Origin: Marine Group I thaumarchaeote
Lineage (GTDB): Archaea > Thermoproteota > Nitrososphaeria > Nitrososphaerales > Nitrosopumilaceae
NCBI GenBank assembly: GCA_013390375.1
Contig: JACATA010000001.1
Coordinates: 50,211 to 74,210 of the forward strand
Length of the DNA stretch: 24,000 bases
Direction: 5' to 3'
Positions 2,842 through 16,959 of this stretch are shown one piece after another. Position 1 is the first letter of the stretch. Each line of letters begins with the position of its first letter. The notes below the pieces were generated by a model. It did no database searches. It was not told where the DNA came from and saw nothing but the letters and a program-made list of their open reading frames with translations. Position numbers and translations under genes: made by a program.

Positions 2842-4074
2842 ATGAAATTTAAGAACTCGCCAAAAGAATCAGACGAATTAATCTATGAAGCAGTTTCATT
2901 ATTCAAGAAAAATAAATTCAAAATGGCACTATCAATTTTTGACAAACTTTTAAAAATTAATCCAAAAAGCTTGATTGCATTATCGCATAAGGCTGCTACT
3001 CTTTATGAGTTATCAAGATTTGATGAGGCGATGAAATACTGTGATCAAGTTCTGGAAGAAGATCCGCTATATCTTCACGCATTGTTTTACAAGGGTTTAG
3101 TACTTGGAAAAATGGGTGAACATCAGAAGGCAATCAGCTTCTTTGATAAAGTTTTACAAACAGATCGTAAACATGTGTTGGCATTATACAATGAGGGTGT
3201 ACAGTTTGGCAAGATTGGCAAATATGAAGATGCAGTAAAATTTTTTGAAAAAACATTAGAGGCTGAGCCAGAAAATTCAAGTGCAATGTATGAAACAGGT
3301 CGAGCCCTAGCAAAATTGGGTAAAACCAAGGAGAGTTTGTTGTGGTTTGACCGGGCAATTAAAGTCGATGCAAAAGAATCAATGTCATATTATAACGAGG
3401 GGGTAGATCTTACAAAAGCAAACAATCACCAAGAAGCTATTGTGTATTACGATAAAGCATTAGATCTTGATAAAAACAATGTAAAAGCACTGGTAGCAAA
3501 AGGCTATACTCTTGATGTAGCCGGTTTTTCTTACAAGCAAGTTGTATCATTGTATGACAGAGCACTAAAAATTGACCCAAAATGTACTGAGGCAATACTG
3601 AAGAAGGGAGTTGTGTTTGAGCGAGTTGGTTTATACCATAGGGCAGTTTCATCGTATGAGAATCTGTTAAAAATTGAACCAGAAAACGTTGAGGCGTTAT
3701 ACGGCAAAGCTGTTTCATTAAACTCGCAAAAAAAATACCAGGAGGCGGAATTTTTTTGTAAACGTGCGATAGCTATAGAACCAAAAAATTTGAGGGCTCT
3801 TGGCAGTATGGTTTGGATCCTTGAACATCAGAAAAGATACGAAGAAGCCATGACTTATTGCGACAAGGCAATTGAGATTAATCCTAATTTCTTCTACACT
3901 TTGAGTTACAAAGGAAAGCTGCTTTACGATTTGGGGAGATTTTCTGAGGCTTTAGTTTACTATGACAAAGCTCTAAAGCTGAGTCCAGACGATAGAAGAG
4001 CTCTTCACTACAGAAATAAGATTACAAATAAATTTGGAAAATTAAAGAAAAAACCCTTTCCTATTAAATTTTGA
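2842..4074 (+). CDS. Tetratricopeptide-repeat (TPR) protein, about 11 tandem repeats
   Basis: The whole 410-aa protein is a run of 34-aa units with the TPR pattern (..A...Y.KAL...P....AL..KG..), for example EAMKYCDQVLEEDPLYLHALFYKGLVLGKMGEHQKAISFFDKVLQTD. ATG start. Its stop codon is 1 nt from the stop of the convergent symporter gene. Confidence 0.9.
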   Translation: MKFKNSPKESDELIYEAVSLFKKNKFKMALSIFDKLLKINPKSLIALSHKAATLYELSRFDEAMKYCDQVLEEDPLYLHALFYKGLVLGKMGEHQKAISFFDKVLQTDRKHVLALYNEGVQFGKIGKYEDAVKFFEKTLEAEPENSSAMYETGRALAKLGKTKESLLWFDRAIKVDAKESMSYYNEGVDLTKANNHQEAIVYYDKALDLDKNNVKALVAKGYTLDVAGFSYKQVVSLYDRALKIDPKCTEAILKKGVVFERVGLYHRAVSSYENLLKIEPENVEALYGKAVSLNSQKKYQEAEFFCKRAIAIEPKNLRALGSMVWILEHQKRYEEAMTYCDKAIEINPNFFYTLSYKGKLLYDLGRFSEALVYYDKALKLSPDDRRALHYRNKITNKFGKLKKKPFPIKF

Positions 4075-4075
4075 C

Positions 4076-5629
4076 TTAAGCAGGTGTACTAGTTTGAGGA
4101 CCTGGCTTGAAACCCCTTAAGTCCTCACCTGCAATAACGTCTTCCACAGGTGGTGCATAATCTCTGACATCGTGTCGTTCCTTGCCAGGATAATTCTTTT
4201 GTGTAGCTAGTGCAACTGCAATGAATAAGAAGAATGCAATGATAGGTGGAATCATACTATCCAAGCCCGCATATTCTACAGCAAGATAGCCCGTTGTCTC
4301 CATATCAATCCAGAAGATTAGTCTTATTCCAGAGCCTACAAGTAGTGCAACAACTGCAGCTGGCATGTTAGATTTCTTCCAAAACAATCCAAGTGTTAAC
4401 GGAGCCCATGCTCCTGCAAACACAACATCAAAAGCTAGAATCAAGTAAAATCCAGGGTTTGGAGCTACCCAAGCAAGAAGTACACCAACTCCAAACATTG
4501 GTATAACACAAATTCGTGTTATCCACAATAATTTGTTGTCACTCCATGCATCCCTCTTGAGCCACCGTCGCCGGATTATACGTTGTATAAGATTACGCGA
4601 AATTACAGCCGAAATTCCAAGCAGACCTCCGTTTGCAGTAGACATTCCCGCTCCAAGAACTCCAATCAGCATTGCCGCCCCAATTGCAAATGGCATGTGT
4701 TCCATTGCAAGCAAAGGCATAGCCATTCCTGGATCTTCAAGCGAAGGCAGATAGAACATCGCAATCATTCCCAACATGCTTGTGGGAATTACTGTGAACA
4801 ATGTCAAGCCGCCTCCCCAAAGTGCACCACGCCGAGCTACCTTCGGGTTTTTAGCAGCAAACACCCTTTCCATAAAGTCTAGAGCTATTACATCACCAAG
4901 TCCCAAGGCAAATAATGCTGCCCAATTAAGCAACGCACCATTTTCTATAACATACAGAGCCGTCAAGTCCATAGTGCCATCTGGGAACGAATCTGAAATT
5001 TCTGCCCACGGTGTATCGGCATATCCCCCTGCAAAGAAGATGAAAGCAGCCCAAAATGCCACAATAGCAATATGAACTTGGAAAAGATCCGTAGCCGCAC
5101 AGGAAAACAAGCCTCCACAGAATGTGTATATCAAGACAACTGTTGCGACGATAAGCAATCCCCAAATGTAACTTACGCCAAATACCAATTCACAAATCAA
5201 GCCAGCCGCTGCCAAGTTTCCAGCAACTAAAATAACAAAACTGATAATCATTAATACTGATGAGATGCCTTCTGCTCCATTTCCAAATCGTCTAAAGTAG
5301 AAATCAGGCAAAGTAAACATTTGCATAAAGTTAAGACGCTTAGCATAGAAGATACCAACTAGCAGCAGACATACACCAAGTCCAATCGGCAATACTGCTC
5401 CAGCATAAAATCCAAATTCCCAGACAAGCGCCATATTACCTAATGATGAGTTTCCATCAATTGATTGGGCTGCCAACATTGTTCCCACCAAAAACAGGGG
5501 AAGGCTTCTGCCTGCTACAATTAATCTTCGGCCACTTTTCTGTACAAGTTTCCACATGAGGGAGCCTGCAATTACTGACCCTGCCAAAAATATAGCTACG
5601 ACAATGCCAAAATCTGTAAATTCTGCCAA
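4076..5629 (-). CDS. Sodium:solute symporter (SSS) family transporter, likely DUR3-like urea transporter
   Basis: A 517-aa polytopic membrane protein with Gly/Ala/Leu-rich helices throughout and SSS-like N-terminal topology. The urea specificity is inferred from its position beside the ure genes and from the known association of SSS/DUR3-type transporters with thaumarchaeal urease loci. The start is TTG at 5629, and the next in-frame Met would delete TM1. Confidence 0.8.
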   Translation of the reverse strand: MAEFTDFGIVVAIFLAGSVIAGSLMWKLVQKSGRRLIVAGRSLPLFLVGTMLAAQSIDGNSSLGNMALVWEFGFYAGAVLPIGLGVCLLLVGIFYAKRLNFMQMFTLPDFYFRRFGNGAEGISSVLMIISFVILVAGNLAAAGLICELVFGVSYIWGLLIVATVVLIYTFCGGLFSCAATDLFQVHIAIVAFWAAFIFFAGGYADTPWAEISDSFPDGTMDLTALYVIENGALLNWAALFALGLGDVIALDFMERVFAAKNPKVARRGALWGGGLTLFTVIPTSMLGMIAMFYLPSLEDPGMAMPLLAMEHMPFAIGAAMLIGVLGAGMSTANGGLLGISAVISRNLIQRIIRRRWLKRDAWSDNKLLWITRICVIPMFGVGVLLAWVAPNPGFYLILAFDVVFAGAWAPLTLGLFWKKSNMPAAVVALLVGSGIRLIFWIDMETTGYLAVEYAGLDSMIPPIIAFFLFIAVALATQKNYPGKERHDVRDYAPPVEDVIAGEDLRGFKPGPQTSTPA

Positions 5630-5757: not shown

Positions 5758-6144
5758 CTATTTTAGGATGTTGTATTTAGTAGCAAAATTCTTAATTTCA
5801 GAAAATTCCATTTCCTTTAAAATGAATTTGGTATAATCATCCCTGTTTATGTGATGCTCGTACTCAACGTTAATGACTTTATCATAAACACGTGGAGGAC
5901 TGGGTATTCTTCCACAAACTTCCTTACAAATTTGCTCTAGTTGGAGAAATTGAAACTTATCCAGCATTTCTAGCGTTAAAATGACCTGCTGCTCCTGTTT
6001 TTCCATTTTTTCATAATCCTTTGGTGATGTATTCTTTTCCTGCTCATCCGCCACAAAATCCGCTAAAAACTCCTTGATATCCATGCTAGTTTTCACAAAA
6101 TCAACAATATAACAGATCACATTAAATGGGATCCATTGTGTCAA
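5758..6144 (-). CDS. Hypothetical protein (track ORF 128 aa; likely real start is the ATG at 6087, giving 109 aa MDIKEFLADF...)
   Basis: I recognised no family. The longer ORF would overlap the upstream gene by 23 nt. The ATG at 6087 sits inside the inverted-repeat arm and has a TATA-like TTATATTG about 25 nt upstream, in the 34-nt gap after the upstream stop. Confidence 0.5.
   Translation of the reverse strand: MTQWIPFNVICYIVDFVKTSMDIKEFLADFVADEQEKNTSPKDYEKMEKQEQQVILTLEMLDKFQFLQLEQICKEVCGRIPSPPRVYDKVINVEYEHHINRDDYTKFILKEMEFSEIKNFATKYNILK
6074..6103 (-). repeat. Right arm of the 30-bp inverted repeat (partner of 5697..5726)
   Basis: See the left arm. This arm contains the probable start codon and 18 nt of upstream sequence of the hypothetical gene. 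Confidence 0.9.
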
Positions 6145-6418
6145 TTAGCCTTGCATTTGTTACATTACCGCTTTTTTCTTGAATTTCTAAATCGACGGTG
6201 TTTTTTTTGCCTTCAAGACTGAAGGTAACTTGAACATCCCAAGCTACACGTGGGCCAAATTCCGGAAGTGCAAAAACCTCACGAATTTTAAAATTACTTA
6301 TACTATTACCGTATAAAGCCTCAATTGTCCTCTTTGATTCTTTTTCTATTTCTTGAGGCGTAGTTACTTGAACCATTAACTTTGCATGAACTTCTCTATA
6401 AAAAAAGTTTTGTGGCAA
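6122..6418 (-). CDS. Hypothetical small protein (98 aa from TTG, or 84 aa from the ATG at 6376)
   Basis: An open frame on the same strand as, and directly upstream of, the 5758..6144 gene. The composition is that of a soluble alpha/beta protein. I recognised no motif. Confidence 0.5.
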   Translation of the reverse strand: MPQNFFYREVHAKLMVQVTTPQEIEKESKRTIEALYGNSISNFKIREVFALPEFGPRVAWDVQVTFSLEGKKNTVDLEIQEKSGNVTNARLIDTMDPI

Positions 6419-6469
6419 TAGGCAAATTTAATTATATTCTAACACACTAAATTTTGAAACAAATTGGGA

Positions 6470-7585
6470 ATGGAAGCTTATGGTGATGATTACAAGGGCG
6501 CACCAGAACCAATTTTTTGTGGAATACCAACATTTTTGAAATTACCGCTTTTAAAAAATCAGCAAGAATTACAGAAATCAAAGCCGGACATTGCAATAAT
6601 TGGTGAACCGTTTGATTTTGGAACTACAATTAGACCCGGTGCACGTTATGGTCCTAGAGCAATTAGGGCAGCATCAACAGTCCCATCACCTCCGTACGAA
6701 CATTTCAACATAGAAACGGGTGTTGATCCATTTGGAGTATTCAAAGTTGCAGACTATGGAGATGTCAATGTATCACCTGGAGATGTGATTGAATCGTTAA
6801 GAAGAATGACGGACAAGGTGAAATCTGTACTTGATATTGATGCTATGCCAATAATGCTTGGAGGGGATCACTCTATTACATTTGCAAATGTACGGGCTTT
6901 TGCCAAAAAACACAAAAACATTGGCATGATACATATCGATACACATGCAGATTGTGCACCGCAAGGACTAACTGGTTTCAAATACGATCACGGTGCACAC
7001 ATTCGCCGAATAATGGAATTAGGTTGCCTTAAAGGGAAAAATTATACCTTGATAGGACCTCGCGGATATTGGCCAGGACCTGATCTTTACAAATGGATGG
7101 CAGACCAAGACTTTCAATGGTTTACCATGTTAGATGTTGAAGAGCTTGGTATAGATCAAATAGCAAAAGAGGCAGCTGACAGAGCAAATGATAACGTTGA
7201 CGGTGTTTTCATAAGCTGGGACATAGACACCTTTGATCCTGCATATGCACCTGGAACAGGAGAGCCGGAACCAAACGGTTTGACTTCTCGTGAAGGAATG
7301 AGATTGATGAGATTGTTATCTACATCATTTGATCCAGATACGTTTGGATTTGATCTAGTTGAAGTTTCTCCAGCATATGACGTGAGTGATGTAAACTCAT
7401 ACAATGGAGGCATCACTTCAGGGTTAGCTAATAGATTAATTGTAGAATTGATGGCGGGGTTATCTTTGACAAAAAAAGGAGAGCGTGAGGGTAATCCTGT
7501 TAGGCCAAAGTCATACAGAGGAACTGGAAACACATATAGCTTTGGCGGACCAAAAGCAGAACCACCTTCTCCTAGAAAAAATTGA
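6470..7585 (+). CDS. Arginase/agmatinase-family ureohydrolase (agmatinase-, guanidino-acid- or guanidine-hydrolase-like)
   Basis: All family metal-site motifs are present: LGGDHSITF, IHIDTHADC, SWDIDTFDPAYAPGTGEPEPNGLT and DLVEVSPAYD. The track ORF starts at TTG 6464, and the first ATG is 6470 (MEAYGDDY..). A ~40-aa Pro/Gly/Lys-rich C-terminal extension (..TKKGEREGNPVRPKSYRGTGNTYSFGGPKAEPPSPRKN) follows the fold. Confidence 0.9.
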   Translation: MEAYGDDYKGAPEPIFCGIPTFLKLPLLKNQQELQKSKPDIAIIGEPFDFGTTIRPGARYGPRAIRAASTVPSPPYEHFNIETGVDPFGVFKVADYGDVNVSPGDVIESLRRMTDKVKSVLDIDAMPIMLGGDHSITFANVRAFAKKHKNIGMIHIDTHADCAPQGLTGFKYDHGAHIRRIMELGCLKGKNYTLIGPRGYWPGPDLYKWMADQDFQWFTMLDVEELGIDQIAKEAADRANDNVDGVFISWDIDTFDPAYAPGTGEPEPNGLTSREGMRLMRLLSTSFDPDTFGFDLVEVSPAYDVSDVNSYNGGITSGLANRLIVELMAGLSLTKKGEREGNPVRPKSYRGTGNTYSFGGPKAEPPSPRKN

Positions 7586-7968
7586 TAGATATTCAAATTA
7601 TCATTAAAGGAGAAAAGGCACAAAATTCATTTTCTCAAAAATATTATTATCCTCATGAATCAGACGAGGAAATTTTTTTCAATTCAGTACAATTAGTAAT
7701 AGCTAGGATTGAAAAGAAATTAAAGATCAACCTTAATGAGGTACTTACAATTTTTCTAGATTTTTTAGTACGAGAGCATAGAAAAAAAAGAGACATAGAT
7801 GAGATAAAAGAAAACCTTTCAAAACTTCTTACACATGATCAAGTATTGATTGGAGTTCCAGAGTTGGTTAAAAAGATAGAATTTTCTGGAAGGATTGACT
7901 TAAACCCAAAATTTACAATTGTTCTAAATGAACCCATTCTGATTCCAGAATATATTATAAAGGCGTAA
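7582..7968 (+). CDS. Divergent urease gamma-subunit (UreA)-like protein
   Basis: It aligns ungapped to the local UreA over ~95 residues. The matching blocks are [44 protein letters not shown] and [19 protein letters not shown]. The ORF has no Met codon. The TTG start at 7582 overlaps the TGA (7583..7585) of the ureohydrolase gene. Confidence 0.6.
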   Translation: MIDIQIIIKGEKAQNSFSQKYYYPHESDEEIFFNSVQLVIARIEKKLKINLNEVLTIFLDFLVREHRKKRDIDEIKENLSKLLTHDQVLIGVPELVKKIEFSGRIDLNPKFTIVLNEPILIPEYIIKA

Positions 7969-8469: not shown

Positions 8470-9399
8470 CTAAGTTTTTCTTACACCATTAAATGAAGTG
8501 CCAAGAATTTCCTTTCTTACTATTCTAATAATACCATAAATTGTGGTTTTAATTTCCTCGGATGAATTTCCTAACAATCTAACAACTAAACCACAGTCAT
8601 GTGGCAGCACGGTACAACCACCATTCACTTCAGCATTATCTTGTAGTGCCAGATTAATTTTCTCTTTAATTTGTAAAACAGAATTATTTTTTGAAATTAT
8701 GTAAATAGTTGCTAAGACTGTATAGTTTCCAAAGATGCCAAGTGTTGTCATTTTTTGTTTTTTTGGTTCTAAAAGAAAATTATCTAAAAATTTAGTTTTT
8801 TTATCATTATTACGACAAATCGTTTTTAGATAACAAATATCGTATGAAAAAAATTCCCCCATGGCAACTCTGCCGGGAGTCAGTATTTCGGAATATACGA
8901 GGGTTGCGGAATCTTCAATGTTTAATTCGACTTTTTGATAATATCGTGAATTTTGATATGGAATTAATTGATCTGGTATGAATTCCAAATAGCAGTCTTT
9001 GTTTACAGTAATATTGAACAATTGTGTAGCATAGTTTGAATTCATTTTGTAGATTCGTGTGGCGCCCTGCGTTGTTATATGACATACAGCTTGATTTGTT
9101 AGCGTAATATCTATTCTACACCGATCTCCTTGTATGATTCCACCTGATGGCGACATGATAAACAAATTGGCCATGCTAGGAAGAAATTCATCATAATAAA
9201 GTGCCTTTTGGATGTAAAGTGGAAATTGAGAATATTGATCAGTAACGACAGTTTTATTTTTTTTAGAATCCTTTTCTAGTTTTATTCTTATGAATCCAAC
9301 TTTTCCTGTTTTGCCAACATCCAGCTGAGCTACTTTATGGTCATATGCTGAGAATTCTGAAGGAATGTCATCTGGTTCAACAAATTTTAGATCAGTCAT
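8470..9399 (-). CDS. ureD: Urease accessory protein UreD/UreH
   Basis: The size (309 aa), the position after ureG with a 4-nt overlap, and UreD-like strings (SPSGGIIQGDRCRIDI, ITTQGATRIYK) support the call. Confidence 0.85.
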   Translation of the reverse strand: MTDLKFVEPDDIPSEFSAYDHKVAQLDVGKTGKVGFIRIKLEKDSKKNKTVVTDQYSQFPLYIQKALYYDEFLPSMANLFIMSPSGGIIQGDRCRIDITLTNQAVCHITTQGATRIYKMNSNYATQLFNITVNKDCYLEFIPDQLIPYQNSRYYQKVELNIEDSATLVYSEILTPGRVAMGEFFSYDICYLKTICRNNDKKTKFLDNFLLEPKKQKMTTLGIFGNYTVLATIYIISKNNSVLQIKEKINLALQDNAEVNGGCTVLPHDCGLVVRLLGNSSEEIKTTIYGIIRIVRKEILGTSFNGVRKT

Positions 9400-10055
9400 T
9401 TTGCATTAGTGATTATTTTTTTTGGAGGTTGTTCAAACAATACATCTTCTATTATGTGACGGGCTACAATGTCAACACCTTCATCAGTTTTGCAGTTAAC
9501 AAGTACGTACGGTTTATTTTTTCTAACAGTTTTTGCATCACGTTCCATTATATCCAAATTAGCATCTACTAGTGGTGCAAGATCAATTTTGTTTATTACC
9601 AATAGATCACACGTCTCAATACCCAATCCCCTTTTTCGTGGATATTTATCACCACCTGAAACATCGATAATATAAATAAAATAATCAGCCAAGGCAGGAC
9701 TAAACGTAGTTGTAATATTATCACCGCCGCTTTCAATTATAATTAAATCCAAATCACTGTGTTCGTTTTCTATCTCTTCAATTACAGACAGATTAATTGA
9801 CGGATCTTCGCGAATTGCCGTATGTGGACATCCACCAGTAGCAACACCAATCACTAAATTTTCAGGTAGTAAGCCCTGATTAGTAGCAAGATTTTGCCTC
9901 ATTCTATCGGCATCTTCCTTAGAAATAACATCATTTGAAATAATACTAATTCGATAACCATTCTTTGCTAAAATTGGTACGACTCTTTCAATCAACATGC
10001 TTTTTCCACATCCTACAGGTCCACCGATGCCAATGCGTGGAATTCTTTTTTTCAT
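9396..10055 (-). CDS. ureG: Urease accessory GTPase UreG
   Basis: P-loop GIGGPVGCGKS, the metal-binding GGCPHTAIRED motif, ESGGDN, and NKIDLAP for GTP specificity. Confidence 0.95.
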   Translation of the reverse strand: MKKRIPRIGIGGPVGCGKSMLIERVVPILAKNGYRISIISNDVISKEDADRMRQNLATNQGLLPENLVIGVATGGCPHTAIREDPSINLSVIEEIENEHSDLDLIIIESGGDNITTTFSPALADYFIYIIDVSGGDKYPRKRGLGIETCDLLVINKIDLAPLVDANLDIMERDAKTVRKNKPYVLVNCKTDEGVDIVARHIIEDVLFEQPPKKIITNAK

Positions 10056-10072
10056 ATCAGCAAAGACTAGTT

Positions 10073-10783
10073 TTATGTAATAAACATTTTAGAAAATGTC
10101 TGCTCATGAGCTATTTGTATAACATCATATTCAGGTGCAAATTGCCACATCTCACTTAATGATTTTGAAATGTATTTGTTACAAGTTTCTGCAATAACAG
10201 GTTTTAATTGATGCAGTATTTTTTGACTTTGAATGTGTTCGATCATCCCTAATCTTAGTGCTGCACCAACCATGCTTACGGAAAATCCATAAAGAAAATG
10301 TAACGCTGCCTTTTGTTTTTCAATCCCTAACGAATTAGATACAACACCTATAACTACAGCATGTGTTCCGGGTGTTTTGGAGTTTTTTACCGCCTCATAA
10401 TACTCACTTAAGACGTCATTGTTAACAAAAGAACTAACACATTTTATCATCTGTGTTCCAGATCTACATGTTGCTTCGCGTAATTCCTTAACAAGTTTCA
10501 TTGAAAATAACAATTTATCACATTCAATTATCCTTTCAACATCTTTTGATCCAGTAAAATTGTAAGCATTAGCAAGTGCTACACAGTCAGCAGGTCCAAT
10601 TTGTTGTACAATATTAGTCTGTATTAATTCATAAAGTTCGTCAATTGATGCTATTCGTTTTTCAGAAAATAATGTTTCTAAACCGTTAGACATTGTGTAA
10701 AGTCCGGTAGGAAAAAATGAATCGGAGATCTGCATCAAGCTCAAGTCGCTAAAATCAGTGTTCATGTACATCCATACTAACAT
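10073..10783 (-). CDS. ureF: Urease accessory protein UreF
   Basis: The N-terminal LMQISDSFFPTGLYTMSNGLE matches the UreF signature (L.Q..DS.FP.G....S.GLE). The gene lies between ureE and ureG. The likely true start is an internal ATG (about 10765-10771), which shortens the overlap with ureE. Confidence 0.85.
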   Translation of the reverse strand: MLVWMYMNTDFSDLSLMQISDSFFPTGLYTMSNGLETLFSEKRIASIDELYELIQTNIVQQIGPADCVALANAYNFTGSKDVERIIECDKLLFSMKLVKELREATCRSGTQMIKCVSSFVNNDVLSEYYEAVKNSKTPGTHAVVIGVVSNSLGIEKQKAALHFLYGFSVSMVGAALRLGMIEHIQSQKILHQLKPVIAETCNKYISKSLSEMWQFAPEYDVIQIAHEQTFSKMFIT

Positions 10784-11252
10784 GTGGAATAAAGCGTTGT
10801 TCGTCTACTGTGAGGTCAATTTTATCAATTACTTCATGAAACAGTCTTTGAAACAATTCCATTTCAGAATCATCAAGAATAGGAAAGGAAATTGTTTCAT
10901 TATTGATTGAAATTGGACGATGCCTATTTCCAATAATGTGACCCACAAGAAGAAATAACTCTGGATCGCTGTCCTTGAATTTAACAGTGAGTGTCTTTTC
11001 CGGTAATTGTTCAATTAGAATAGTTTCTGAGGATTCTAAAATTATATCGCCATGTTGTAGTCTTTTTCCAGGTTCAAGCGCTAGACCAATATCAAATCCA
11101 TCTTCAGTTTTTTTTCTTAAACGTGATTTTTCCATCTCAATTCTAGACAATAATAGGCGCCTAAACGTTCCATGTTGTTTTACTTCTTGAAATTTTTTCG
11201 CTAGCTCGGCGTTTTCGTATATATTTCCCGAAACAGCATTAACAATTAACAT
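10755..11252 (-). CDS. ureE: Urease metallochaperone UreE
   Basis: The conserved Ni-binding segment is present (LVGHIIGNRHRPISI; UreE GNRH motif), and the protein has a short His-containing end (HVSMDVHEH). It is the first gene of the ureEFGD operon. Confidence 0.8.
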   Translation of the reverse strand: MLIVNAVSGNIYENAELAKKFQEVKQHGTFRRLLLSRIEMEKSRLRKKTEDGFDIGLALEPGKRLQHGDIILESSETILIEQLPEKTLTVKFKDSDPELFLLVGHIIGNRHRPISINNETISFPILDDSEMELFQRLFHEVIDKIDLTVDEQRFIPHVSMDVHEH

Positions 11253-11329: not shown

Positions 11330-11632
11330 ATGTATCTTACTCCAAGGGAAATGGACAAATTACATGTCTTTATGACAGCTGAACTTGCTAGAAAACGAAA
11401 AGCAAGGGGTTTAAAATTAAACCATCCGGAATCTGTTGCACTTATTGCTGATCATATTTTAGAAGGTGCTCGTGATGGAAAATCAGTCGCTGATCTAATG
11501 AATTCTGGAAAAACAGTCTTAACAAAGGACGATGTTCTGCCTGGTGTGACAGATATTATTCATACAGTTCAAGTTGAAGCAACATTTGAGGATGGTACAA
11601 AATTAGTCACAGTTCATGACCCAATTGTGTGA
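11330..11632 (+). CDS. ureA: Urease gamma subunit
   Basis: [57 protein letters not shown]...[21 protein letters not shown] is the canonical 100-aa UreA. Confidence 0.95.
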
Positions 11633-11636
11633 TAAT

Positions 11637-12017
11637 ATGATACCAGGAGAATATTTTCACGCAGATAAATCCATACTGGCAAATGAGGGGCAAAAAACTG
11701 TTCAAGTTAATGTTGCAAGCACTGGCGATAGACCTATACAAGTTGGATCCCACACTCATTTTTTTGAAGTAAATAAGGCGCTTGAGTTTGAAAGGGAAAA
11801 AGCATATGGTTTTCATCTGAACATACCTGCTGGTACATCCGTCAGATTCGAACCTGGGGAATCAAAAAATGTTGAACTAACTGAATACACTGGAAAAAGA
11901 ATTGTTTATGGATTTAATGGTCTCGTAAGTGGTTCACTGGAAAAAAATAAAGAAGATGCATTGAAAAAGGCGGCAGAACAGGGTTTCAAGAATATTGTAA
12001 TAAAACGTGATGGGTAA
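11637..12017 (+). CDS. ureB: Urease beta subunit
   Basis: It opens with the canonical MIPGEY and contains [17 protein letters not shown]. The track ORF begins earlier (11616), but the ATG at 11637 gives the conserved N-terminus, 4 nt after the ureA stop. Confidence 0.95.
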
Positions 12018-13731
12018 AATGGTTCTTGAAATTGCAAGAAAACGATACGTTGAACTGTTTGGTCCGACAGTTGGTGACAAAGTACGCCTTGCTGACACTG
12101 ATTTGATCATTGAAGTTGAAAAGGATCTTCTCAAATATGGAGATGAGCTTGTATTTGGTGGCGGGAAAAGTGTACGTGATGGGCTTGGTCAAGCAGCCGG
12201 TGTCATGCGTGACGAATCTGCCGATTTAGTAATCACAAATGCAATAGTCTTAGATCCTGTCTTGGGTATCATCAAAGCAGATATTGGAATAAAGGACGGA
12301 AAGATTCTAAGAGTTGGAAACGCAGGAAATCCAAATGTGATGGATGATGTTGACATTATTGTTTCTTCAAATACTGAAATAATTTCCGGTGAGCATACAA
12401 TTTGTACGCCTGGTACGATTGACAGCCATATTCATTTTATCTCTCCGCAGCAGGCGATTTATGCCATTTGTAGTGGGACTACTACCATGATTGGTGGCGG
12501 TACTGGTCCCGCTGATGGTACAAATGCCACAACTTGTACGCCTGGAGAGTGGAATATACACAAAATGATTGAGGCTGTAGAAGAATACCCACTAAACTTT
12601 GGATTCTTAGGCAAGGGCAATGACTCACGCGAGGAAGCTTTACTGGAACAAATTAAAGCTGGAGCATGTGGCTTGAAACTTCATGAGGATTGGGGAACAA
12701 CTCCGGCTACAATAAACTCGGCGCTAAATGTTGCGGACAAAACTGATACGCAGGTTGCAATTCATACGGATACGCTAAACGAGTGTGGCTATGTTGATGA
12801 TACCATCAACGCAATTGCGGGAAGAGCTATCCACACCTACCATACAGAAGGTGCTGGTGGCGGACATGCGCCGGACATTATGAAGATAGCGGGAGAAGCA
12901 AACATCTTACCGTCTTCAACAAACCCCACTAGACCATTTACGGTAAACACACTTCAGGAACATCTTGACATGATGATGGTTTGCCATCACCTTAATCCTT
13001 CAGTTCCAGAGGATGTCTCTTTTGCTGAATCAAGAATACGGGCTGAAACAATTGCTGCTGAAGACGTCTTGCATGACATAGGTGCCATTAGCATGATGTC
13101 ATCAGATAGCCAAGCAATGGGTAGAGTAGGAGAAGTTACTACCAGAAACTGGCAGACAGCAGACAAAATGAAGAAAATGAAAGGAAGGCTGTCTCAAGAA
13201 AATGGAGATAATGATAATTTTAGGGTAAAAAGATATCTTGCAAAAATTACTATAAACCCAGCAATAACTCATGGAATTTCTGACTATGTTGGCTCACTTG
13301 AGCCAGGTAAAATTGCTGATATAGTTATTTGGACGTCACAGTTTTTTGGAATTAAACCCAAGTTGATAATCAAGGGAGGATTCATAGCATATGCTTTGAT
13401 GGGAGATCCAAATGCGTCAATTCCAACAACAGAACCGGTTTATTATCGCCCAATGTTTGGTGCGCTTGGAAAAGCAAAGCAATCTACGTCGGTTACTTTT
13501 ACCTCACAACTTGCATTAGATAATAAATTAGAGGAAAAGCTAAAAATTCAGAAAAAACTTGTTCCTGTAAAAAACTGCCGCAACATTGGAAAAAAGGATA
13601 TGCTGTATAATGATCAAACGCCTAAGATAGAAGTTGATCCAGAAACATATGAAGTGAAAGTTGACGGTAAAATTGCAACGGTTGATCCTGCCGAGAAGCT
13701 ATCTCTTGCGAGACTTTACAGCTTGTACTAA
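12007..13731 (+). CDS. ureC: Urease alpha (catalytic) subunit
   Basis: [16 protein letters not shown] is present, together with the Ni ligands and active-site strings [20 protein letters not shown] (carbamylated Lys), [29 protein letters not shown] and SSDSQAMGR. In-frame start candidates are GTG 12007, ATG 12010 and ATG 12019. All of them overlap or abut the ureB stop at 12015..12017. Confidence 0.97.
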
Positions 13732-15343: not shown

Positions 15344-16708
15344 TCAGAACTTGCTTGGTAACAGTTCCGCAAGTTTTAGCGCCTTTCCCGTCTTTTTAGC
15401 CTCGGACATCTTTTTGAACATCTCGCGCTTTTCCTCCTCGGAATATTTTTTTTCGATTACCAAATGTACCAGCGGTCTTAGAATTTTTTCCACGGCGGAC
15501 ATGTCAGGATTATCAATTCCTTTGAGAAAAACCAAATTTCTTTTTTCCGGACCATACTCTAGCTCTTCGATTCTTTTTCTCAAGTCATCAATCTCGTGGT
15601 TTTTTGTCTCTAGCTGGTTGATCTCCTCTTGTTTTTGCTGATTCTCTAGACGCAACAGTTCTTCATTGGAAATGGTAAGGAACGGAATTGCCTTTTGATA
15701 TTCAGGAAACCTCTCAAAGTCTTCCTCCTGGTATCTTTCATAGTGTCTTTCCAAGCCAACCTTGTGACCCATCATGTCTTCCTTGTCGAGAAAGTTAACC
15801 TTGGCTCGTCTCATCATTGTGTTAAAGTATTTTCGAAAGCCGTGATCCAGTTGCACCTCATGTCTATTTTTTCCAGGCGGCAAGGGAGGTCTCAGTCCTA
15901 TCTCTGTCACTATCTTTTCAACTCTTTTCCTAACTCCCTTTGAGTTTAGTCTGTGAATCACGGGATACTTTACCGCCCTTATCAGCGGGTCGTCAGGCTT
16001 TGGGTATGCGCCAATGTCAGCCTTCCACTTTTCACGGTAGAGTTCCAGGGTACTAGATGCCTCTGGCGTGACAAACGTCCAGTAGCTTTCAGGATCTCCA
16101 CGGTACACAAGCAAGGAGCCTCCCCTGTAAGATCCGTCCTTGTTCTTGAATGGAATATAGTCCTTCCATGTAAAATAATTCCAGGAATCCAGCCTGAATC
16201 CTCCAGACGAAAATAGCTGTATGATCAGTTTGTCTGTAATGTCTGGTGCAACCTGCATCATTTTCTGAAGTTCCGTCTTTGTGTATGCCCTGTCGTTGGA
16301 CGAGGTTTCGCGTCTGGGTAGAAGCTTGTTTAACGATTTCCAGTGAACCGGTATGCGGTTGGCATCAAGCAAAACCTTGATTGGCTTGATGTGGTTTGGC
16401 AGCGTGTTGGCGCTGAGCTTTCCGGCATCCACCACCTTTTTCTCATTTTTTATAAACGTGGCAATCACGTTTGCCGCCAGTTCTGGATCCTTTTTGGATA
16501 ACTTGACAAAGATGTTGGCAAGGGTGGAAGGTTCCTTGTTCCTTGGAGCCTTTCCCAGATGATCCTTGTAGAGTTTTACCGGAACGATCTTGAGAAAGGA
16601 CTGCAGGTCTTTTTTGTACTTTCGCAGCGTCTCCTCACTCTTGATTGAATCCAGGAACAGCTGGTATGGGACGCTGCGTTCGTTTATCTGGTCAATTGTG
16701 ATTTTCAA
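15344..16708 (-). CDS. Tyrosine recombinase / phage-type integrase with a long C-terminal coiled-coil extension
   Basis: The catalytic pattern is recognisable: SSGGFRLDS (Arg), LDHGFRKYF (H-x-x-R), MMGHKVG (His) and ERHYERY (Tyr, around residue 323-326). The start is TTG at 16708. An in-frame TAA lies 30 nt upstream with no ATG between. A TATA-like TAAAATAG lies about 30 nt upstream. Confidence 0.85.
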   Translation of the reverse strand: MKITIDQINERSVPYQLFLDSIKSEETLRKYKKDLQSFLKIVPVKLYKDHLGKAPRNKEPSTLANIFVKLSKKDPELAANVIATFIKNEKKVVDAGKLSANTLPNHIKPIKVLLDANRIPVHWKSLNKLLPRRETSSNDRAYTKTELQKMMQVAPDITDKLIIQLFSSGGFRLDSWNYFTWKDYIPFKNKDGSYRGGSLLVYRGDPESYWTFVTPEASSTLELYREKWKADIGAYPKPDDPLIRAVKYPVIHRLNSKGVRKRVEKIVTEIGLRPPLPPGKNRHEVQLDHGFRKYFNTMMRRAKVNFLDKEDMMGHKVGLERHYERYQEEDFERFPEYQKAIPFLTISNEELLRLENQQKQEEINQLETKNHEIDDLRKRIEELEYGPEKRNLVFLKGIDNPDMSAVEKILRPLVHLVIEKKYSEEEKREMFKKMSEAKKTGKALKLAELLPSKF

Positions 16709-16750
16709 CTGAAATTTGTTCGTGTTGGAACTATTTTAGTCCCATCAAAG

Positions 16751-16768
16751 GGGATGGGTCCACAGGGA
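16751..16768. repeat. Proximal att direct repeat overlapping the tRNA-Val 3' end
   Basis: It covers the 3' half of the T-arm and the 3' acceptor strand of the tRNA, and pairs with 15219..15236. Confidence 0.85.
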
Positions 16769-16829
16769 TTTGAACCCTGGATTTTCGCCGTGTAAGGGCG
16801 ACGTCATAACCGACCTGGACCATGGACCC
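16755..16829 (-). tRNA. tRNA-Val (anticodon TAC)
   Basis: Hand-folded, 75 nt. The acceptor stem GGGTCCA/TGGACCC is perfect, the anticodon stem is TCGCC/GGCGA with loop CTTACAC, and the T-arm is CAGGG-TTCAAAT-CCCTG. The discriminator is A and CCA is not encoded. A TATA box, TTTAAATG (16852..16859), starts at -30. Confidence 0.9.
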
Positions 16830-16959
16830 AGCAAATTTCCTCGTTGAAAACCATTTAAACTTTGAGAAGTTATTTTTTGATTAGAACTGGTAGCAAGTCA
16901 GCATAAAAAATAACAAAATCAAACTAACGAATAATAGTGCAAGTTTTTCTTATCAAATA

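Follow-up and report, generated by a model that had tools for sequence, protein, structure and literature searches.

An arginase-family enzyme of ammonia-oxidising archaea as a candidate ureohydrolase for guanidine-type compounds, encoded with a transporter and often with urease

It is an open question which organic nitrogen compounds fuel archaeal nitrification; urea and cyanate are the accepted substrates. In 2024 guanidine was found to sustain a comammox bacterium, in a paper that also describes ammonia-oxidising archaea (AOA) as lacking guanidine-degradation genes (PMC11410670). We analysed a 24,000-nucleotide stretch of DNA (hereafter the window) from a Marine Group I thaumarchaeote (GenBank assembly GCA_013390375.1, contig JACATA010000001.1, positions 50,211 to 74,210), in which an open reading frame (ORF) at 6464–7585(+), here labelled ARG, encodes an arginase-family protein between a symporter gene and urease genes. 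What does ARG hydrolyse, and what ties it to these neighbours? Our preferred answer, to which we assign a probability of about 0.55, is that ARG belongs to an archaeal subfamily of ureohydrolases that turns a guanidine-type compound into urea, together with a transporter and often with urease. The candidate gene set combines an importer with an unusual ureohydrolase and a partner that resembles urease gamma, and it occurs in hundreds of AOA species, one scan having matched 242 genomes.

An intact arginase-family ORF had been proposed at this place from the DNA letters alone (hereafter the original prediction). A profile search bore this out: ARG matches PF00491 with E 3.9e-81 and 273 bits (cut-off 22) over model positions 2–278 of 280, which excludes chance as the source of the match. 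The four motifs that the original prediction had read as intact (GGDHS, DTHAD, SWDIDTFDP and VEVSP) all lie in invariant columns of a 28-sequence family alignment (A1, 42–86% identity). The elements of the gene are the following.

6464–7585 (+), ARG, arginase-family ureohydrolase of 373 aa, archaeal 'Glu-type' clade (PF00491, AlphaFold2 model, Foldseek)
6860–6874 (+), GGDHS, residues 133–137, with metal ligand His136 (invariant in A1)
6938–6952 (+), DTHAD, residues 159–163, with metal ligands Asp159, His161 and Asp163 (invariant in A1)
7214–7240 (+), SWDIDTFDP, residues 251–259, with metal ligands Asp253 and Asp255 (invariant in A1)
7250–7273 (+), PGTGEPEP substrate loop, residues 263–270 (alignments to 7esr, 9fek, 3nio, 3nip and 1gq6)
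7358–7372 (+), VEVSP, residues 299–303, with guanidinium-binding Glu300, the equivalent of arginase Glu277 (invariant in A1)
7466–7582 (+), C-terminal extension GLSLTKKGxxEGxPVRPxxYRGxGxTYxFGxGPKAxxPKR, residues 335–373 (AOA conservation)

The six metal ligands are all intact, as are the catalytic His176 and Glu300, and each of them stands in an invariant column. The AlphaFold2 monomer model (predicted local distance difference test score, pLDDT, 85; predicted template modelling score, pTM, 0.88) adopts the arginase alpha/beta fold, and Foldseek matched it with probability 1.0 and TM scores of 0.74–0.92 to many family structures. From this intact catalytic apparatus we predict, at somewhat better than even odds, that ARG is an active binuclear-metal ureohydrolase.

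The family placement of ARG sets it apart from the enzymes whose name it usually receives. Against solved structures it scored 182 bits with GbuA, 174 with the Synechocystis guanidinase GdmH, 172 with PAH and 168 with both the Nitrospira inopinata guanidinase and GpuA, as compared with 110–121 bits for solved agmatinases (117–121 for SpeB) and at most 96 for arginases. It also falls below the cut-offs of both NCBIfam agmatinase models, the equivalog TIGR01230 (163.6 versus 174.3 bits) and the subfamily-type NF002564 (204.7 versus 302 bits). These results, which agree with the original prediction in placing ARG apart from housekeeping SpeB, support the view that it is not an ordinary agmatinase and represents a separate archaeal subfamily. 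A word-indexed sequence search returned 1670 relatives: AOA orthologues at 72–99% identity and then, after a gap, a group at 56–60%, haloarchaeal 'agmatinase family proteins' at 52–56%, and the rest at 45% or below. When 1.84 billion 50%-identity representatives were searched exhaustively, the clade appeared as one full-length sequence (437 bits) plus fragments, the next full-length sequence scoring 240 bits; among the best 150 of these representatives only clade members carry Glu at the loop position corresponding to Glu267 of ARG, and the 45%-identity group has Thr in the loop. A neighbour-joining tree, built with partial PDB-derived sequences and no SpeB outgroup, placed the AOA, the 60% group and the haloarchaea together, with the 45% group as sister, GbuA, GpuA and PAH further away and the guanidinases outside. 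On these alignments AOA, haloarchaea and the third group form a compact clade, whose marks are Glu267, a pair of insertions and the conserved extension at the C-terminus. When one genome per GTDB species was scanned, 242 genomes had relatives, and the best 80 of these all come from AOA (Nitrososphaera, Nitrosocosmicus, Nitrosopolaris, Nitrosotalea, Nitrosotenuis and Nitrosopumilaceae).

Comparison with characterised enzymes narrows the likely substrate. With GbuA and GpuA of Pseudomonas aeruginosa (3nio, 3nip), both of which release urea, and with human GDAH/AGMAT, ARG shares the fold, the metal ligands and the catalytic His and Glu, and GbuA is its best sequence match among solved structures (2e-52). 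Identity to GbuA and GpuA is, however, only about 35–40% and the clade is separate: its Glu replaces Thr in PGTG-x-P, and ARG has a further 6-residue insert and the C-terminal extension of about 40 aa. In addition, a 4-residue insert of ARG replaces the GbuA segment bearing Arg72, which binds the substrate carboxylate from the neighbouring subunit (PMC9772407); this position falls in the clade-specific insert TVPSPPYEH, which offers no Arg or Lys. Asp175, beside the catalytic His, and Glu267 bring extra negative charge to the ARG pocket. With no basic cap and an acidic pocket, ARG is unlikely to take a guanidino-acid substrate, and we rejected a guanidino-acid hydrolase of the GbuA, GpuA or GDAH type; the pocket looks suited to a cationic substrate or to one without a head group.

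The model's top structural neighbours are the two guanidinases, GdmH (Sll1077, 7esr) and that of N. inopinata (9fek), followed by PAH, GpuA, GbuA, metformin hydrolase and then the agmatinases. The catalytic His and Glu are conserved with the guanidinases, as is Thr97 (Sll1077 numbering), the second Thr of FGTTIRPG aligning with SGTTYRPG. Like the comammox enzyme, ARG is encoded by an ammonia oxidiser with urease, and one clade member (locus L095) adjoins an ABC transporter of the NitT/TauT type. Transporters of this type are associated with guanidine genes in bacteria. Guanidine specificity of the guanidinases is conferred by Thr97 and Trp305 (PMC11410670), and instead of the latter (Trp305/313) ARG has Glu267, reading PGTGEPEP versus PGTGWPEP, at a position held by Thr in most family members. 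For this reason, and owing to its tree position outside the guanidinases, membership of the GdmH type, the Ni-dependent guanidinase family, was rejected. The ARG locus also differs in having neither a guanidine riboswitch nor HypA/HypB, with UreDEFG nearby instead; no riboswitch or other known RNA was found upstream of ARG, the Rfam matches of the window being three tRNAs and one artefact inside ureC. The known Ni-dependent family members are all among the nearest structural neighbours of the ARG model, and UreDEFG is adjacent; to our knowledge, no sequence signature tells Ni from Mn sites. Metformin hydrolase (MfmAB/MetCaCb), which is Ni-dependent, has two subunits and ranks above the agmatinases among the structural neighbours at about 26% identity, shows that a ureohydrolase can depend on nickel and on a second subunit encoded alongside it. 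Its partner is a second arginase-fold subunit, whereas the candidate partner of ARG has the urease-gamma fold.

That partner, and the transporter and urease genes, belong to the following layout, which confirms that ARG lies between the symporter and the urease accessory genes.

666–2372 (−), thermosome (group II chaperonin) paralogue of the module (PF00118)
2842–4074 (+), TPR-repeat protein of the module (Pfam TPR families)
4076–5629 (−), SSF-family sodium:solute symporter (PF00474)
6122–6418 (−), orf98, small conserved protein of the module, 98 aa (synteny, dN/dS)
7582–7968 (+), UreA-like ORF, urease gamma paralogue, 128 aa (PF00547, Foldseek)
8470–11252 (−), ureD, ureG, ureF and ureE, Ni-insertion accessory genes (Pfam)
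11330–13731 (+), ureA, ureB and ureC, urease structural genes, presumed urea consumer (Pfam)

Two small ORFs (−) separate the SSF symporter from ARG, and a small membrane protein (−) is encoded between the UreA-like ORF and ureDGFE. Across the 80 AOA loci ARG is accompanied by SSF, the UreA-like ORF, the thermosome paralogue and orf98, in the order SSF-ARG-ureA'-...-ureDGFE/ureABC. More distant clade members show other arrangements.

L087: ARG-ureABC-ureFGD, SSF nearby
L095: urtABCDE-ureABC-ureEFGD-ARG, then the NitT/TauT-type ABC transporter
L088 (haloarchaeal): urease genes-UrtA-nitrile hydratase-isochorismatase-ARG-PhoU-like-UrtABCDE
L093 (Natrinema): urease-SSF-AbrB/PhoU regulator-ARG
L085 (Haloquadratum) and L094 (Halalkalicoccus): SSF-regulator-ARG, no urease nearby

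Clade members thus adjoin urease genes in at least four unrelated gene orders (AOA, L087, L095, and haloarchaeal L088 and L093). Because the association recurs in unrelated gene orders, ARG is likely to act in the same pathway as urease; this is good comparative evidence for a shared pathway, and the release of urea is the obvious link by family chemistry. The constant partner of ARG is nevertheless a transporter and not urease: wherever the flank is long enough, SSF adjoins ARG in practically all AOA loci, as it does in three haloarchaeal genera (haloarchaeal and window SSF being 39% identical), and in one lineage its place is taken by the NitT/TauT-type ABC transporter. Urease genes were found in the flank of 17 of the 32 loci with at least 8 kb on both sides of ARG, and were absent from the flank of the other 15. 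In L051, the closest syntenic relative of the window, SSF, ARG and the UreA-like ORF are followed by a radical-SAM gene with no urease between, and in L090 and L092 the module is present with no urease within 10 kb. The marine loci L081–84 keep the thermosome, SSF, orf98, TPR and ARG genes and bear a deletion scar (for example at 11940–12641 in L083) in which the last 56 codons of ureC are fused to the 3′ half of ureD; the related L097 has an intact ureCBA/ureEF... arrangement. As L081–84 are identical, they give no power for a test of selection after the loss of urease. The TPR gene stays beside ARG in marine loci with and without urease. Because ARG and SSF persist where urease is absent or deleted, ARG would have a function independent of urease.

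Locus L095 has a Urt urea transporter and, directly after ARG, a second, separate transporter, which suggests that the transporter beside ARG carries the substrate of ARG. The binding protein of this second transporter belongs to the SsuA family, with a 'urea-carboxylase-associated' binding protein as the second-best model. By analogy, the SSF symporter of AOA may import the guanidino substrate instead of, or besides, urea. The best NCBIfam matches of the window SSF are the generic SSS and PutP models; its nearest solved structure is the transporter of choline, an organic cation, CHT1, a kinship that gives a weak hint of organic-cation transport. The co-location of an SSS transporter gene with 'agmatinase (SpeB)' is already known in print from metagenome-assembled genomes of soil AOA, where the gene is reported as conserved and as expressed in metatranscriptomes and was proposed to play a role in regulating urea concentration (PMC11131427).

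The ORF that follows ARG proved to be a real gene. It scores 31.1 bits against PF00547 (Urease_gamma; cut-off 23.9), a weak match above threshold, and can be aligned over its whole length with the true UreA of the window (11330–11632) at 24% identity. The top 18 Foldseek matches of its predicted structure are all urease gamma subunits (TMt 0.76–0.80), the alignment used for the prediction having included the window's true UreA, and the model has a beta hairpin added at the N-terminus as well as a C-terminal extension. The ORF scores far below the NCBIfam gamma equivalog cut-off (38.7 versus 123 bits) and, unlike urease gamma UreA, is paired with ARG and not with ureB and ureC, which have their separate, true ureA. 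The original prediction had it translationally coupled to ARG, with which the sequence agrees: its TTG start at 7582 overlaps the ARG stop codon TGA (7583–7585) by 4 nt, and an overlapping start is conserved in 59 of 75 loci (4 nt in 51, 1 nt in 8). The ORF is intact in about 70 of the 80 loci at a conservation of 35%, with a ratio of nonsynonymous to synonymous substitution rates (dN/dS) of 0.08–0.31 in seven of eight pairs; the eighth, a near-identical pair, gave 0.51 at a dS of 0.01. It is plausible that the UreA-like protein derives from an ARG-ureA arrangement like that of L087, where the true ureA directly follows ARG. A Tara Oceans sequence is among its close homologues, which assigns the window to a marine ammonia oxidiser of the Nitrosopumilales type.

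The C-terminal tail of ARG had been described as lying outside the fold. Its pLDDT of 43–58 in the monomer model fits this description; across the 80 AOA sequences, however, 22 of its 39 positions are at least 90% conserved, and its proximal part is common to the haloarchaeal and third groups. Because it is conserved, the tail is probably a functional extension and not a dispensable low-complexity one. In the one marine clade that lacks the UreA-like ORF, even where urease is intact (L097), TYxFG of the tail becomes TLxYG, and these are the most divergent ARG sequences; this single evolutionary event is only suggestive of a contact between tail and UreA-like paralogue. In the same clade a membrane protein of about 245 aa follows ARG on the same strand (L083 11171–11920(+), L092 11186–11917(+), L097 2058–2795(+)), that of L083 having a weak DsbD_2/TauE-like match.

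ARG is one of the slowest-evolving proteins seen in these genomes. In the 80 AOA sequences 262 of its 373 positions are invariant, and between loci labelled Nitrososphaera and Nitrosopumilales the median full-length identity is 94% for ARG, as against 83% for UreC, 81% for UreG, 70% for SSF, 62% for the thermosome paralogue and 45% for the UreA-like protein. Some cross-order ARG pairs reach 96–98% over 319 core columns; between orders, synonymous sites are saturated, at a dN of about 0.03. For pairs with a measurable dS, dN/dS of ARG is 0.005–0.04, below that of UreC in the same genome pairs. Haloarchaeal orthologues are 77–89% identical across orders and marine-lineage ARG 73–84%; as the 80 loci are the best of 242, the lower bound of identity is biased. 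ARG is under very strong purifying selection. Recent horizontal transfer was rejected as the source of the high identity, since the G+C content at third codon positions follows the host (0.25–0.77) and dS is saturated between orders. Uneven dS in the pairs L052 versus L065 and L042 versus L054 (ARG 0.25 versus 0.01–0.06 in the flanks; SSF 0.97 versus about 0.2 in its neighbours) suggests allelic replacement of ARG and SSF by recombination between related lineages.

According to the reading that we prefer, the SSF symporter would import a guanidino compound without an acidic head group, most likely free guanidine or a small alkylguanidine, with agmatine as the next candidate; alternatively, the substrate could be made inside the cell. 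Guanidine-type substrates are ranked first partly because, in the absence of urease, only guanidine would yield ammonia directly to the oxidiser. A metal-bridged hydroxide would attack the guanidinium carbon, releasing urea together with ammonia or an amine, and where urease is present, as in the window, the adjacent enzyme would turn the urea into ammonia, fuelling ammonia oxidation. In AOA, ARG would be produced in translational coupling with the UreA-like paralogue, its probable binding partner. The data above show the fold, the intact catalytic site, the separate clade, the conserved synteny and the purifying selection; what kind of substrate ARG takes, what SSF does and that ARG forms a complex with the UreA-like protein are inferred from them.

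Several observations weigh against this answer. ARG is retained at its syntenic position where urease is missing (for example in L051, L090, L092, 15 of 32 well-flanked loci and L081–84), which the original prediction had itself named in advance as one of its refuting signs, and feeding urease cannot be its sole role; of the proposed urease feeder the pathway link stands, and the idea of urease as the invariant partner gives way to SSF. The specificity Trp of GdmH is missing, and the published screen that found no guanidine-degradation genes in AOA (PMC11410670) speaks against guanidine in particular. A cross-order identity of about 94–97% is unusual for an accessory catabolic enzyme and is left unexplained by our model. 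The 45%-identity sister group has no urea context, and our literature searches found no paper characterising any clade member and no enzymology. The AOA SSF is annotated in the field as an SSS/DUR3 urea transporter, apparently owing to its co-location with urease genes, and it could be simply that urea importer. If our reading is right, the routine naming of this gene as a urea transporter, and of ARG as SpeB, is called into question. A bolder version of it, which we regard as unlikely, is that AOA and some haloarchaea possess a guanidine-use system of their own, unlike the bacterial one, in which SSF would import guanidinium or a small cationic guanidine, ARG would convert it to urea and ammonia, and the UreA-like protein would dock ARG to the urease machinery for Ni loading by UreDEFG and/or for handing over urea. 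If true, this would overturn the view of AOA as devoid of guanidine-degrading genes and the most abundant nitrifiers would gain a new energy substrate.

The alternative found in the AOA literature (PMC11131427, PMC6790972), which we consider doubtful, is that ARG is a biosynthetic SpeB on the route from arginine to putrescine, the nearby urease and SSF only recycling or disposing of by-product urea. ARG shares superfamily and chemistry with SpeB (E. coli 7lol, Deinococcus 1wog, Thermoplasma 3pzl), automatic annotations name it agmatinase, it lies just under the TIGR01230 cut-off, cationic agmatine would be compatible with the acidic pocket, and strong conservation together with retention in the absence of urease would fit an essential housekeeping gene. 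Yet ARG is nearer to GbuA, GpuA, PAH and GdmH than to any solved agmatinase, scoring 60 bits lower with SpeB than with GbuA, and its context is a transporter and urease: Pfam and locus annotation revealed no polyamine genes in the window or related loci, an importer accompanies ARG in every case, and the ARG genes of other archaea lie inside urease or urea-ABC operons. Most AOA are reported to have 2–3 speB-like genes (PMC10753782), and urease-negative isolates described as having no urea transporters are still reported with SpeB, which would then be a different paralogue. A search of 1.39 Mb of AOA locus DNA (six-frame ORFs, hidden Markov models) found only orthologues of ARG and no second arginase-family paralogue.

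Two further explanations bear on the neighbours of ARG. The link to urease could be historical, an ancestral ARG-ureABC operon having broken up so that the neighbours are relics and the UreA-like ORF a decaying duplicate. The true ureA directly after ARG in L087 would agree with such an origin of the UreA-like ORF, as would its 35% conservation and its loss in one marine clade that retains urease; however, the association recurs in different gene orders and distant lineages, and an ORF intact in about 70 of 80 loci, with the dN/dS values given above and an overlap in 59 of 75, hardly resembles a decaying one, which makes this explanation improbable. More improbable still, in our estimation, is that the guanidino group on which ARG acts is carried by a protein or peptide, a role of the kind proposed in deoxyhypusine formation of Haloferax or for peptide arginases, or that ARG is a structural or scaffolding part of a larger assembly that also includes the TPR protein, the chaperonin and the UreA-like protein. 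In its favour, almost the whole surface is conserved, as is typical of proteins with many macromolecular contacts, the disordered tail is conserved, ARG is inherited together with a TPR protein and a dedicated chaperonin paralogue, and the superfamily includes peptide arginases (PMC10028609). Against this, the catalytic site is intact in a fold typical of small-molecule enzymes, the steady association with solute transporters and with urease suggests a small substrate, and the putative partners evolve far faster than ARG.

The remaining genes of the module are less readily placed. orf98 is 37–67% identical in 57 loci, has a dN/dS of 0.03–0.10 and no family match, and in about 57 related loci its neighbour is always either the 3′ end of ureC or the thermosome paralogue. 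The latter, a fast-evolving protein, is found in 55 of the 80 loci and also in urease-less marine loci, and together with the multi-TPR protein it is co-inherited with SSF and ARG even in urease-less marine genomes. It is a matter of speculation that these two proteins and the disordered ARG tail make up a dedicated folding or assembly system. In the haloarchaeal islands (L088 4598–6856, L093 9115–11364), which adjoin genes for urease and a urea ABC transporter, ARG occurs with nitrile hydratase, an isochorismatase-family hydrolase (weakly BiuH-like) and an amidase, which looks like a general set for small nitrogen-rich compounds funnelled into urea; the NCBIfam names of the neighbouring amidase and isochorismatase genes are generic only.

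Elsewhere in the window, an Rfam match to the Helicobacter 5′ ureB small RNA lies antisense within ureC (12175–12463(−), 40.8 bits versus a threshold of 40), and most likely reflects conservation of the urease coding sequence and not a small RNA. A tyrosine-recombinase-like ORF (15344–16830(−), weak PF00589 match) adjoins tRNA-Val (16752–16830); neither this ORF nor the APS kinase beside it has a match in the syntenic relative L051, and the region may be an element integrated at tRNA-Val. The start codon of ARG is TTG in the window, with an ATG two codons later, and the homologous codon is ATG in 82 orthologues. About 30 nt 5′ of this start a TATA-like, A/T-rich box, tttaattatatt, can be read at 6427–6438, consistent with a nearly leaderless ARG transcript that would be divergent from orf98.

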